A stretch of 64,000 bases of DNA, taken from Octopus vulgaris. Lineage: Eukaryota. Both the position numbers and the translations under genes were made by a program. The number at the start of each line of letters is the position of its first letter. The first letter of the stretch is position 1. The DNA is taken from contig OX597826.1 of NCBI GenBank assembly GCA_951406725.2, positions 23,746,001 through 23,810,000 of the forward strand. Direction: 5' to 3'. Shown piece after piece: positions 14,623 through 32,040 of this stretch. A model generated the notes under the pieces. It made no database searches. It saw nothing but the letters and a program-made list of their open reading frames with translations, and was not told where the DNA came from.

Positions 14623-16405
14623 AAGTGTAGGAAGAAATGGAGCTGAACGAAGATTTAACAAAATTCCTTTTTATTATTTTCTACATATGTTTCGAAGGCT
14701 GCAAAGTCCCTAATTCGGATTGAATAAGGAGTCCATTTTGCAGCCTTCTCTTCAGGAAAATCCAGGAACTTAATTCTCCAACAAAATGCACAGCAAGCTT
14801 TTCGACAAACGCTCACGAGGAGCCCATGAAATAAATGGCACAAACTGTCTATCTATATGTGTTGACGCCAGACTGGGTGAAAGCAGAAGAGAATGTCCGT
14901 TGAGATAGTTCAAGGTCAGAATCCGGTTAGCAGAAGGGGGGGGGGTACAGGAAAATCAAAGAGTGTGAATGTATTCTGTATGACTGGTGTTTATATTTGA
15001 ATTATTTTAAGAATGAGTGTTAGTGTTTGAGTGTGAGAAATTGCTTTCATGTATGTGTGTGTGCGTCTATGTATGTGTGACAGTGTGTTTCGAAGGCAGA
15101 AAGAGAGAGATATAGCAGGTATTAATGGTCAAGCAACAGAAAAAACTGTGTCTGTGTGTTCGTATGTGACCACTTGATAGAGAGGGGGTGTCCACAATGG
15201 TCATGGCAATTATCAAATTTATCTGCCAACGTCGACATTTTTAGGCAGAAAGCGGAATTTTATAATGCCGCCCTGTCAAAAGCCGGTTATAGGGAGAAGG
15301 TAACATATATAGACCCAGCCCTTCCGAAACCAGTATTCTATCATCAGGATAAGTCAACTTAGAATAATATAAATAATATAAGTAGTGATGGTAGCCTTAG
15401 GAATGTCGATACAAGTACAACTAGCATAAATATAGATAACATAAACAATTTGCAGTCCAGGGGAGGCCATCATAGGCCAAAACCCATTATTAAACCCAGA
15501 GATACCCACCTTAATGTTAGAGTTGACTCTCCGAGCCAGTACAAGAACAGGAAAAACTATATTTGGTTTCTAATTCCCTTTGGTAAACAAATAAGATCTA
15601 ACCTACCGGTGCAGTTTCGCCAAGCAATTGCCAGAAATTTTCCCAGAAATTCGAGATATTACCCCACTGTAAATTCGCACAAAGTAAGGATAGCCTTCTC
15701 CAATACTAAAAATCTTTCACAGATAATTTCCTCCCATAACAATAAGCTGCTAAATAAGGCCCTCTCACCCATGAGCGGAGACTCTGCTCCGTCAAATTCC
15801 AACATAACGCGCAGTAATAATAATAAATAATAATCGAACTGGCACAGATATTAGCAACCTCCATACCAACATTGGAGTTAGTAATAGTAATAATGATAAG
15901 AGCACTGATCTCATCATTAACGTAGGGAGTCCCAACAATAATATTAGCAGCGGTTTTAACAACAGTAGTATTATGGACATTATCGATCACAGCACTCACA
16001 GTAACAGGGAATATGCAGGTGATATTGCCTTAAATAGTAATGATAATGGGGTGAATAATATCGAATCCAAGCGGTAGTTTTTACAATCATCATAGTAATA
16101 AGAACGCTGTATTAATATCGGAATTCAATCCCAATAGATTAAGGTTCTTATCTAGTAACTCTAAGATTAGAAATGCCATTTACCAGTGCAGAGTTTATAC
16201 TGAATCAGATGTCTTCATTTATATCGGAGCTTCATCATCGAAATTGGCCATTAGAATATCGAACCATTTTTCCACGTTCTGTGATAAGGATAAGCAACAC
16301 GCTACGGGGCTAAGCAAATTAGTCTGGCGTTTGAAGAACGCGAATTCAACTTTTAGACTGGAATGGTCAATTTTATCGGTGTCTTTACCGTTTGATAAGG
16401 GCAAT
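14623..16405 (+). mobile_element. Degraded Penelope-like element 1: inverted pseudo-LTR (~14623-15190) + RT C-terminus + Asn-rich linker + GIY-YIG cut off by (TA)n
   Basis: 15156-15362 reads LSNLSANVDIF...YNAALSKAGY. 15450-15830 reads NYIWFLIPF...RNFP...KVRIAFSNTKNLSQIISSHNNKLL. ~16172-16400 reads NAIYQCRVYTESDVFIYIGASS..RISNH..LSKLVWRLK..EWSIL. The upstream antisense segment carries a hammerhead. Confidence 0.82.
14677..14760 (-). ncRNA. Type I hammerhead ribozyme
   Basis: Minus strand: UUUUC-CUGAAGA-GAAGGCUGCAAA...UUUGCAGCCUUC-GAAA-CAUAUG-UA-GAAAA. Stem I is 5 bp, stem II 12 bp, stem III is the palindrome ACAUAUGU, and the cleavage triplet is GUA. Confidence 0.88.
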
Positions 16406-18245
16406 ATATATATATATATATATATATATATATATTATATTATATATATATATATATATATATATATATATATATTATATATATATATATATATATATAT
16501 ATATATATATTATATATATATATTATATATATATATATTATATTATATATATATATATATATATATATATATATATATATATATTATATTATATATATAT
16601 ATATATATATATATTATATTATATATATATATTATATTATATATATATATTATATATATATATATTATATATATATATTATATTATATATATATATATAT
16701 ATATATATATATATATATATATATATATATATATATATATATATATATATATATATATATATATATATATATTATATATATATGTATTATATATATATGT
16801 ATTATATATATATATATATATATATATATATATATATATATATATATATATATATATATATATATATATATATATATATATATATATATATATATATATA
16901 TATATATATATATATATATATATATATATTATATATATATATATATATATATATATATATATATATATATATATATATATATATATATATTATATATATA
17001 TATATATATATATATTATATATATATATATATATATATATATATATATATATATAAAATAAATATATATAAATAAAAAAAATAAAAAAAAAAAAAAAAAA
17101 AAAAAAAAAAAAAAAAAAAAAAAAAAAAAAAAAAAAAAAAAAAAAAAAAAAAAAAAAAAAAAAAAAATATATATATATATATAAAATAAAAAAAAAAAAA
17201 AAAAAAAAAAAAAAAAAAAAAAAAAAAAAAAAAAAAAAAAAAAAAAAAAAAAAAAAAAAAAAAAAAAAAAAAAAAAAAAAAAAAAAAAAAAAAAAAAAAA
17301 AAAAAAAAAAAAAAAAAAAAAAAAAAAAAAATAAATATAAAAAAAAAAAAAAAAAAAAAAAAAAAAAAAAAAAAAAAAAAAAAAAAAAAAAAAAAAAAAT
17401 AAAAAAAAAAAAAAAAAAAAAAAAAAAAAAAAAAAAAAAAAAAAAAAAAAAAAAAAAAAAAAAAAAAAAAAAAAAAAAAAAAAAAAAAAAAAAAAAAAAA
17501 AAAAAAAAAAAAAAAAAAAAAAAAAAAAAAAAAAAAAAAAAAAAAAAAAAAAAATAAAAATAAAAAATATAAAAAAATAAAAAAAAAAAATAAAAAAAAT
17601 ATAAATAAAAAAAAATAAAAAAAAAATTAAAAAAAAAAAAAAAAAAAAAAAAAAAAAAATAAAAAAAAAACATATATATAAAGAAAATAAAAAAGAAAAA
17701 AATAAAAGAATAAAAAAAAAAAAAATAATATATATATATATTATATGTATTATATATATAAATATATTATATATATATATATATATATATATATATATAT
17801 ATATATATTATATGTATTATATATATATATTATATGTATTATATATATATATATATATATATTATATATATATATATATATATACATATATATATTATAT
17901 GTATTATATATATATATTATATATATATATATATATATTATATGTATTATATATATATATATTATATGTATATATATATATATATTATATATATATATAT
18001 ATATATATATATATATATATGTATATATATATATATATATATTATATATATATATATATATATATATATATATATATATATTATATATATATATATATAT
18101 ATATATATATATATATATGTATATATATATATATATATTATATATATATATATATATATATATATATATATATATATATATATATATATATATATATTAT
18201 ATATATATTATATATATATATATATATATATATATATATATATAC
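16403..18245. repeat. Long (TA)n with embedded poly(A) (~17055-17725)
   Basis: Direct reading. The poly(A) may be a base-calling artefact. Confidence 0.9.
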
Positions 18246-18275
18246 GCGAGAAAGAAGCAACAAGAATGGATAGGT

Positions 18276-18366
18276 TTTTAGTACAATCGTTTCATACAAG
18301 GACAGGCTTTATTAAAAGTTGCAAAGATTGCAGCATATAAACGTGTCCCGTACTCATCAGCTAAAA
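18276..18366 (-). ncRNA. Type I hammerhead ribozyme (inverted pLTR copy)
   Basis: Reverse complement of 20941-21031. Confidence 0.85.
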
Positions 18367-18528
18367 TACATGTGAGTTCTCTAGACATACTAGTGGTTGA
18401 GGCTATACTCATGAAGTAATGTAGATAATTAAGTAACATAAACAGATTTCCAAAGTTCATTAGCTAAGATTAATAATAACAACATTAAACTAGCCAGGAA
18501 AGATAGAAATAAAAATAATAATATCAAC

Positions 18529-30637: not shown

Positions 30638-30745
30638 ATTTCTTACTGATGAATCTGAGGGCTCTGTGGAAGATTGGCTTGATTTAATTTAATCAGGTTA
30701 GTTTACCATTAATCAGCAGATGAAACGGTATATCGTATAAGAAAT
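30638..30745 (+). ncRNA. Type I hammerhead ribozyme (array copy 3)
   Basis: AUUUCUUA-CUGAUGA-AUCUG...CAGAU-GAAA-CGGUAUAUCG-UA-UAAGAAAU. Confidence 0.9.
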
Positions 30746-31132
30746 TACAGGGTAAATGTTTTTTAAATTTTCTCCTGGTTTACAGAATTGACTTTTATTT
30801 GCGGTTGAAGCTTTGGCTGTTATTTCTAGTGGGTGAATGGCCTATTATGGCCGTTCCTTGATTGTTGATGTTAAACTTAAAAATGGTCTATGACTATTTA
30901 ATTTTTTCCTACTAGGCCGCTGGTGGCAAAAGAATTCTACAAAATTTTTTTTTTGCCACCCTATATTGATTAATTATGAATTTTCTGGTTAATTCCGTAA
31001 TGGAATCGACGGCTTATATTTATTTGCTGCCGATAAATTTGGCGCGAGTGCGACGATTTGAAAATTTTAGGTCAGATATAAACTTGGCAAGGTCGGAAAT
31101 GCCTCGTGAAAATATCTGCTCCGACTTGGGCT

Positions 31133-31239
31133 ATTTCTTACTGATGAATCTGAGGGCCTGTGGAAGATTGGCTTGATTTAATTTAATCAGGTTAGTTTAC
31201 CATTAATCAGCAGATGAAACGGTATATCGTATAAGAAAT
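31133..31239 (+). ncRNA. Type I hammerhead ribozyme (array copy 4)
   Basis: Stem I AUUUCUUA/UAAGAAAU (8 bp), core CUGAUGA, stem II AUCUG/CAGAU with a long extension, GAAA, near-palindromic stem III ACGGUAUAUCGU, and GUA at 31229-31231. Confidence 0.92.
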
Positions 31240-31892
31240 TACAGGGTAAATGTTTTTTAAATTTTCTCCTGGTTTACAGAATTGACTTTTATTTGCGGTT
31301 GAAGCTTTGGCTGTTATTTCTAGTGGGTGAATGGCCTATTATGGCCGTTCCTTGATTGTTGATGTTAAACTTAAAAATGGTCTATGACTATTTAATTTTT
31401 TCCTACTAGGCCGCTGGTGGCAAAAGAATTCTACAAAATTTTTTTTGCCACCCTATATTGATTAAATATATATATATATATATATATGGCTAAACTGGCA
31501 AAATGACCATTCCTAAATACAACAATATATATATATATATTGGGCCTACAGTCATGAGGTTCTGAGTTCAATTCCTAGACTGGGCTGTGTTGTGTTGAGC
31601 CAGACACTTTATTTCACATTGCTCCAGTTCCCTCAGCTGTAGAAATGAGATGTGGCAGCATTAGTGTCAAGCTGTATCAAGGGCATATTCAAATGCATGG
31701 GCAACTATTGTTCATCCACAAACAAACTTGCCTGGACTTGTGCCTTGGAGGGAAACTTTGTAAGTGCAATCCCATGGTCATTTGTCACCAAATGTGGCCA
31801 TCACTCTTTATATATAGACACACACACACAAGTACAAAACAGAGTGGAAAAAGTAATACTTGAATACCAAAGGTAGAGTAATATGCTTTTTT

Positions 31893-32040
31893 TTAAAGCT
31901 GCAAAATTATCACAAAACTATTACTTGGAGTTTCACATTCCTGTTCATCAGACAATTGCGAAGTTTTCATCACAGCTGTCCAACAGACAGGAACATGAAA
32001 CTTTGAGTAACAGTTTCTGTGATAATTTTGCAGCTTCAAA
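31893..32040. repeat. Old inverted repeat of a minimal-hammerhead pLTR-like unit
   Basis: aagctgcaaaattatcacaaaactattac... pairs with ...gtaacagtttctgtgataattttgcagctt. Confidence 0.8.
31916..31957 (-). ncRNA. Minimal type I hammerhead ribozyme (42 nt)
   Basis: Minus strand: AAUUGU-CUGAUGA-ACA(GGAA)UGU-GAAA-CUCCAAG-UA-AUAGUU. The plus-strand partner at 31974-32015 has a destroyed core (CCAACAG). Confidence 0.8.

Follow-up and report, generated by a model that had tools for sequence, protein, structure and literature searches.

The Hydra clade of Penelope-like elements (PLEs) is diagnosed by an endonuclease that has a CxCX5C linker plus CxxC and CxH motifs around the residues E and N, and 26 of the 27 Hydra families listed in its published description insert into (TA)n and carry hammerhead ribozymes, including Hydra-1_Obim of Octopus bimaculoides (Craig et al. 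2021, PMC8557442). In the same source, elements are typically truncated at the 5′ end, with an inverted copy and a tail on one side, and inverted and tandem insertions, as well as partial tandems, are normal for PLEs (PMC8557442). The hammerheads of truncated PLEs described in PMC4209133 form opposite-strand pairs, belong to many families per genome, have a palindromic helix III and cleave weakly as dimers. The locus described here lies in a 64,000-nucleotide (nt) stretch of the Octopus vulgaris genome (assembly GCA_951406725.2, contig OX597826.1, positions 23,746,001 to 23,810,000; "the window"), in which a prior reading made from the letters alone (the sequence-only reading) had seen, at 14623–32040, a hotspot of hammerheads from several families. 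It ascribed them to PLEs or retrozymes with a palindromic helix III sitting in (TA)n, and in this it was right; (TA)n targeting together with hammerheads is the published signature of the Hydra clade, Octopus included.

The region is very probably a chain of insertions whose terminal repeats contain eight hammerheads and whose ends lie at TA microsatellites; these insertions likely arose by Penelope-like retrotransposition and probably have no host function. Elements A and B carry the reverse transcriptase (RT) thumb and GIY-YIG end of a PLE protein, and D, which has no protein, consists of 492-nt hammerhead units in tandem (Table 1). The eight motifs belong to four insertions (A, B, D, and E), and treating them as eight independent items was an inflation: 18276 and 20941 mark opposite ends of a single element, and all four D copies stem from one template.

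A strict descriptor (CUGANGA, GAAA, a GUA site and helices I to III, with helix I open) run over both strands of the window returned eight type I hammerheads, all within 14623–32040, and none in 30 block-wise dinucleotide shuffles. All eight have the type I core and helices, the E copy weakly so; with one core mismatch allowed, the sole extra match was a weak one at 1801–1849 (−), whose score shuffles reach 0.08 times per run. These are the same eight that the sequence-only reading had called intact-looking, a term that fits their core matches but not the motif at 31916, which is decayed (helix III mismatch, minimum free energy −1.4, z +1.4), nor the B fold, which is no better than shuffles; hammerheads A and D fold with z of −3.2 and −4.7, respectively. 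The helix III sequences quoted in that reading (ACAUAUGU, ACGAUUGU, and ACGGUAUAUCGU) are present, and its description of a short, self-complementary stem III is borne out: they are palindromic or nearly so, have hairpin energies of only 0 to −0.2 kcal/mol, and form duplexes in A (−7.0 kcal/mol), B (−5.8) and D (−13.6), with E at −0.1. The hammerhead families had also been called unrelated, which is true of the RNA sequences but not of the proteins: 39% identity links the endonucleases of A and B. None of the eight is matched by an Rfam hammerhead model at E ≤ 10 in scans of 14623–16403, 18245–21178 and 29640–32160, and no hammerhead is among the 150 of 212 Rfam matches listed for the whole window; the long helix II is the likely cause of this miss.

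Table 1. Hammerheads, elements and other repeats in and around the 14623–32040 region of the window
Feature	Position	Strand	Remarks
Hammerhead A	14676-14761	-	CUGAAGA core, 55-nt helix II arm, helix III ACAUAUGU; predicted cut after 14682
Hammerhead B, left	18276-18366	-	strict scan; predicted cut after 18282
Hammerhead B, right	20941-21031	+	60-nt helix II arm; predicted cut after 21025
Hammerhead D1	29759-29865	-	strict scan; predicted cut after 29767
Hammerhead D2	30251-30357	-	strict scan; predicted cut after 30259
Hammerhead D3	30638-30745	+	strict scan; predicted cut after 30737
Hammerhead D4	31133-31239	+	68-nt helix II arm, 12-nt palindromic helix III; predicted cut after 31231
Hammerhead E	31916-31957	-	strict scan; decayed
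Element A, inverted 3′ end (terminal repeat and 3′ untranslated region)	14623..15190	-	contains hammerhead; inner boundary approximate
Element A, 5′-truncated open reading frame remnant	15174..16403	+	RT thumb, Asn-rich stretches, GIY-YIG; stops, frameshifts
(TA)n array with ~650 nt poly(A)	16404..18244		probably base-calling artefact
Element B, inverted terminal repeat with hammerhead 18276-18366	18245..18462	-	complementary to right repeat
Element B, open frame, 329 amino acids	18442..19431	+	189 amino acids at 34% Asn, CxCX5C, GIY-YIG, CxxC..E..N..CxH
Element B, long 3′ untranslated region	19432..20844	+	between stop codon and terminal repeat; no open frame of ≥100 amino acids on +
Element B, terminal repeat with hammerhead 20941-21031	20845..21178	+	plus 112-nt tail, this end only
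Family C, three 3′ halves of a Hydra-style hammerhead	22478..23309		GAAA at 22552-, 22625+, 23270-; helix III ACUCAGAGU
Non-coding 720-nt tandem unit	23306..24862	+	two units and part; ends at (TA)n
Family H terminal fragment, high-copy	25031..25432	-	degenerate hammerhead ~25150-25200, absent from the sequence-only list; read from sequence; contains a hairpin
Element D, palindrome of 492-nt non-coding unit	29637..31466		two copies on -, then two on +; (TA)n flanks
Element E, decayed inverted pair	31887..32051		hammerhead 31916-31957(-), remnant ~31974-32015(+)

Element B is a 5′-truncated Penelope-like element with an inverted terminal repeat, and is laid out as inverted repeat, truncated open reading frame (ORF), 3′ untranslated region (UTR), direct repeat and one-sided tail, the arms (222 nt) being 99% complementary to 20845–21066. 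Its frame aligns with the C-terminus of 722- and 806-amino acid RT-endonuclease proteins; where the RT of the Hydra clade has RWK and DKT, two long relatives have RWK/RWR and YRDDG but DKS or DKTG, and B itself is truncated after the RT. The endonuclease motifs CKC-RIKSK-C (the CxCX5C linker), CQLC, E, N and CVH match the Hydra diagnosis, its GIY-YIG domain has the invariant Y, Y-G, R, H and W columns common to its relatives, and, as in Hydra elements, the hammerhead lies in a terminal repeat of an element inserted in (TA)n. HMMER found 3490 relatives of this endonuclease at E ≤ 0.001, of which the nearest with a name are Octopus proteins, the best being from Octopus sinensis (74%); a word search for longer homologues returned none, although the HMMER search did find some, and metagenome contigs held no relatives of the B protein. 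The Asn-rich linker is common to three other Octopus proteins. Pieces of the B family also occur in Octopus gene models: the Asn-rich frame at 18529–19016 (+) is 91% identical to the first 151 amino acids of O. vulgaris CAJ1099352.1 (G-protein-coupled-receptor-like, ankyrin) up to a GTAAGT donor-like site, where the match ends, and resembles the start of CAJ1099364.1; O. sinensis XP_029636861.1, labelled "myelin gene regulatory factor-like A", is a B-family fragment. The ankyrin parts of the two O. vulgaris models are absent from the window, and such pieces reflect either annotation error or exonisation at other loci.

Element A is likewise a 5′-truncated Penelope-like element with an inverted terminal repeat. 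Its left end begins 1 nt past (TA)10, the minus strand of its inverted 3′ end has no protein match, and its ORF remnant matches full-length relatives at E 4e-12 to 3e-14 (tblastn), with GIY-YIG recognized by Pfam at E 0.03. It resembles Hydra-type proteins in both RT thumb and endonuclease. The CxCX5C motif, a proposed guide to (TA)n targeting, is not seen at 16055–16403 (+) in this one decayed copy, yet its intact end adjoins (TA)10. Between A and B, and again to the right of B, the TA arrays contain poly(A) runs (17070–17725, ~650 nt, and 21671–22193, ~520 nt) that are probably sequencing artefacts of long (TA)n.

Element D is built differently. Its centre (30444–30630) is scrambled and its left arm is 105 nt shorter than the right; the 492-nt unit has no protein match, is 35.8% GC and is strongly self-paired (z −4.6). 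The four D hammerheads share the same letter at all eight sites checked, including 31119, where nearly all other copies of the family differ; therefore the four copies come from one template. They form two tandem pairs (−31.5 kcal/mol), as retrozymes do at the sequence level, and the unit is also non-coding, below 45–50% GC, highly self-paired and multicopy. By sequence, D thus answers to the definition of a non-LTR retrozyme, and it is a cephalopod candidate for one. Public contigs from four runs (two DNA runs with two organism labels, and two guessed to be RNA, which have contigs over D and E) were compared over 30978–32163. Summed contig depth over D was 0.4–1.8 million in both DNA runs vs ~45–75 for single contigs at the joints, and it was high along the whole 492-nt unit; this marks D as very abundant, the depth being uncalibrated as a copy number.

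The variation among these contigs bears on the D ribozyme itself. It has at least 11 variable sites, and among those listed none affects helix I or any of the 12 invariant core bases (p 0.03); the free N7 accounts for one, and four lie in paired helix II, of which three keep the pair and one breaks it. At the centre of the helix III palindrome, 31224 and 31225 both change from AT to GC, at depths that match in each of the four runs (31/32, 33/33 in run X3, 3/3 and 5/6 contigs). These two positions cannot pair within one molecule; the change keeps the palindrome and matters only in a dimer, where the double change gives a helix III energy of −17.5 kcal/mol and the single changes −10.6 and −7.1 kcal/mol. 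The paired change is as dimer cleavage predicts.

The sequence-only reading had placed every hammerhead at (TA)n. This stands for the element ends: seven of twelve are within 1 nt of a TA run and 11 within 17 nt, while the twelfth is 221 nt away. The corresponding background figures are 1.5% (within 2 nt) and 6.7% (within 20 nt). Five of the twelve ends (B left, both D ends, a C copy and the 720-nt unit) were placed by homology between copies and the others by eye, and the adjacency of the D ends to (TA)n refers to this locus only. The ribozymes themselves are only loosely placed, 32–722 nt from the nearest run of (TA)5 or longer; 26% of random 90-nt segments are within 150 nt of such a run. 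Their distance was dropped as a test in favour of element ends. The idea that (TA)n acts as a sink holds in that ends adjoin TA, but TA-run density is similar inside (11.7%) and outside (10.4%) the region, and the two longer TA-rich arrays of the window, 54510–58321 and 61396–63472, have no hammerhead match. Nor is there support for the families being co-active, as that reading had proposed: A carries stops and frameshifts, and the arms of E are only 76% alike.

A mechanism that would yield such a locus can be outlined from the layout and from the published biology. A Hydra-type protein would nick a (TA)n tract, reverse-transcribe its RNA from the 3′ end, stop early and add an inverted copy, so that a single event could leave hammerheads on both strands and split the tract into new targets; D may be copied in trans by such a protein. 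Helix III is predicted to be too weak in one copy and to form between two tandem copies, and the ribozymes, as dimers, would cut multimeric element RNA to unit length, after which D units could circularise. Read-through of B or D would give long double-stranded RNA rather than cutting: the arms point outward, and therefore a transcript from either side would make the antisense arm first, which should silence cleavage.

Several observations weigh against this account of the region as Hydra-type insertions with dimeric ribozymes. The one-sided tails are 105–112 nt, whereas 30–40 nt are described (PMC8557442). The CxCX5C linker was not found in any of three frames of element A, a decayed copy, and because of this A is called Hydra-like only, its clade being judged by similarity; it also has no 3′ end, its endonuclease remnant breaking off at a 1.8-kb TA and poly(A) array. 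D has no protein, and layout alone connects it to Hydra. No contig spans 30978–32163, the linkage of 31224 and 31225 is deduced from depths, and one ancestral event would suffice to explain their joint change. The fold of hammerhead B is on a par with shuffles (z −0.36). Cleavage, RNA ends and circular junctions are all predictions here, and eight of nine Xenopus retrozyme dimers failed to cleave in vitro. Dimer cleavage is reportedly the subject of a 2017 study by Lunse et al.

The clustering of these insertions could have causes other than the ordinary habits of such elements. One long ancestral (TA)n tract may have drawn insertions well above the genome average, making the region a true local hotspot. 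It is in line with this that, over 14603–25432, inserts separated by TA spacers follow one another almost without a break, and that six insertions in 27% of the window have p 0.007 under uniform placement; however, the four intact-core insertions have p 0.063, the window was chosen after the fact, the two longer arrays have no hammerhead, and D alone is so abundant that the background may be high. Insertion-level clustering is thus weak, and a true hotspot seems possible but on balance doubtful. (The eight hammerheads would give p 0.0006 if independent, a figure rejected here as they come from four insertions.) Alternatively, the elements may be real and their cluster partly a product of assembly, in which TA arrays join pieces of separate loci and fold-back reads duplicate the C repeats or the D palindrome. 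The poly(A) runs of ~650 and ~520 nt within TA arrays, the A endonuclease that ends at such an array, the D centre that resembles a mix of two orientations, the N gap at 25433–25532 and the TA density that is not raised in the region speak for such joins. On the other hand, B is internally complete, the left arm of D ends precisely where (TA)n begins, 105 nt early, as expected of a one-sided PLE tail, and inverted and tandem insertions are normal for PLEs, so that misassembly on this scale appears unlikely.

For D, it is tentatively suggested, as a reading that falls somewhat short of probable, that it is a cephalopod retrozyme: a 492-nt RNA whose copies number in the thousands in two or more related genomes. 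On this reading a dimeric hammerhead with a covarying palindromic helix III would cut the RNA to unit length, the units would circularise, and a Hydra lineage peculiar to octopuses, marked by Asn-rich linkers, would return them to (TA)n; as such long-armed hammerheads escape Rfam, octopus genomes would contain a large uncounted population of ribozymes. D could instead be a terminal repeat belonging to some longer autonomous PLE, or a DNA-level satellite with a disused ribozyme. In favour of this, PLE terminal repeats are the origin of retrozymes, PLEs normally include partial tandems (PMC8557442), and the D RNA is itself a prediction; but contig depth is high over the whole 492 nt, variation avoids the core and keeps most pairs, and the unit is strongly self-paired, which together make a repeat or satellite of this kind rather improbable. 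An autonomous PLE partner for D was found neither in the window nor in the Craig et al. supplement, metagenome contigs or viral contigs, and six short motifs that would point to a Naiad origin were not found in the Craig supplement, a weak test with the line-wrapped sequences there. The sequence-only reading had further proposed that, if the locus is an intron, ribozymes on both strands could cut host pre-mRNA and so alter expression. D does have a tandem pair on each strand, so that a dimer is possible whichever strand is read, 42–44% of Xenopus retrozymes overlap introns, and an intron could be longer than the window. But in the 150 of 315 frames scanned there is no host protein domain, only LINE (long interspersed nuclear element) domains and five weak matches below the cut-off; on each strand A, B and E offer no more than a single intact core, and the inverted layout of B and D puts the antisense arm first whichever strand is transcribed. 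Minimal PLE hammerheads also cleave weakly in vitro (PMC4209133), and no RNA-seq ends were seen at an anole PLE hammerhead (PMC11167929). Cutting of a host transcript is very improbable, and a host effect of the hammerheads is unlikely.

The remaining repeats include degenerate relatives of these motifs. The remnants that the sequence-only reading had placed at ~22589 and 23218 are indeed 3′ halves of one family (C), and the one at 31974 is a decayed copy of the motif at 31916, but at ~22955 only GAAA, ACAUGU and A are seen, with no CUGANGA and no hammerhead fold. Every family C half lacks CUG and the 5′ strand of helix I, those at ~22589 and 23218 share one truncation point, and the helix III of the family, ACUCAGAGU, is the one listed for Penelope-3_HM in the supplement of PMC8557442. 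The 720-nt tandem unit has a CUGAAGA ~90 nt from its end, where other families carry the hammerhead, and no hammerhead fold was found in it. A second family H fragment (31487–31540) is a 40-nt piece between two TA runs directly after D, and a very high-copy 100-nt element at 32064–32163, also between TA runs, has no hammerhead in this piece; TA precedes other genomic copies of its family in 67, 144 and 19 contigs. A SINE-like (short interspersed nuclear element-like) repeat at 21310–21533, with further copies at 4538–4660 and 42919–43098, likewise lies between TA runs, and TA adjacency is therefore not unique to PLEs in the window. Outside the region there are LINE remnants at 2097–4318 (−), 7607–9177 (+) and 58400–60924 (−), with Pfam RT, endonuclease or zf-RVT matches, and at ~63400–64000 (+), judged from its translation; positions 1–405 consist of tandem 74-nt units, each of which contains a short TA run.

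The gathering of hammerhead elements in (TA)n is explained by Hydra-clade PLE biology and is published behaviour. Modestly new here are the helix II arms of 55, 60 and 68 nt, the Asn-rich linker, and D, which gives cephalopods a concrete candidate for a circular retrozyme RNA. The double AT-to-GC change in the middle of helix III of D offers support from natural variation for a dimer model that has rested mostly on in vitro work. As long helix II variants escape Rfam, octopus ribozyme counts are probably low, and Octopus gene sets list parts of the B-family ORF as host proteins. A literature search returned no report of a cephalopod or octopus hammerhead retrozyme, though subscription papers, preprint supplements, Repbase and Dfam could hold such families; the main text of the 2026 O. 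vulgaris repeat annotation does not mention ribozymes.

Among known systems, the Hydra-clade PLEs, including Hydra-1_Obim, share with B the C-terminal GIY-YIG domain, CxCX5C, and CxxC and CxH around E and N, and they share with the locus the hammerhead near the 3′ end, insertion in (TA)n, 5′ truncation with an inverted copy and the one-sided tail (PMC8557442). A and B appear to be other families, as short motifs of their hammerheads are not in the supplement of that paper. Their helix II arms are 55–60 nt vs 12–26 nt in the 25 Hydra families listed (our count; PMC8557442), and B has an Asn-rich linker of at least 189 amino acids and ~1.7 kb after its stop codon, whereas Hydra elements are mostly below 3 kb in all (PMC8557442). 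D resembles the metazoan non-LTR retrozymes (Cervera and de la Pena 2020, PMC7229834; Li, Clavereau and Pollet 2026, 10.64898/2026.07.22.740005) in being non-coding, 36% GC and made of tandem units that each have a complete type I hammerhead, and also in its high self-pairing and very high copy number. At 492 nt it is longer than the ~170–400 nt of invertebrate retrozymes and falls within the 51–972 nt of the 2026 survey (PMC7229834; 10.64898/2026.07.22.740005); it differs from them in its 68-nt helix II arm, 12-nt palindromic helix III and palindromic arrangement, and is known here from its sequence alone. The minimal dimeric PLE hammerheads (Cervera and de la Pena 2014, PMC4209133) differ in that their helix III is absent or 2–6 nt, whereas it is 8–12 nt here, and in a much shorter helix II; in common with the present motifs they are of type I, have a palindromic helix III, occur as many unrelated-looking families per genome, and form opposite-strand pairs 100–700 bp apart that derive from truncated PLEs.

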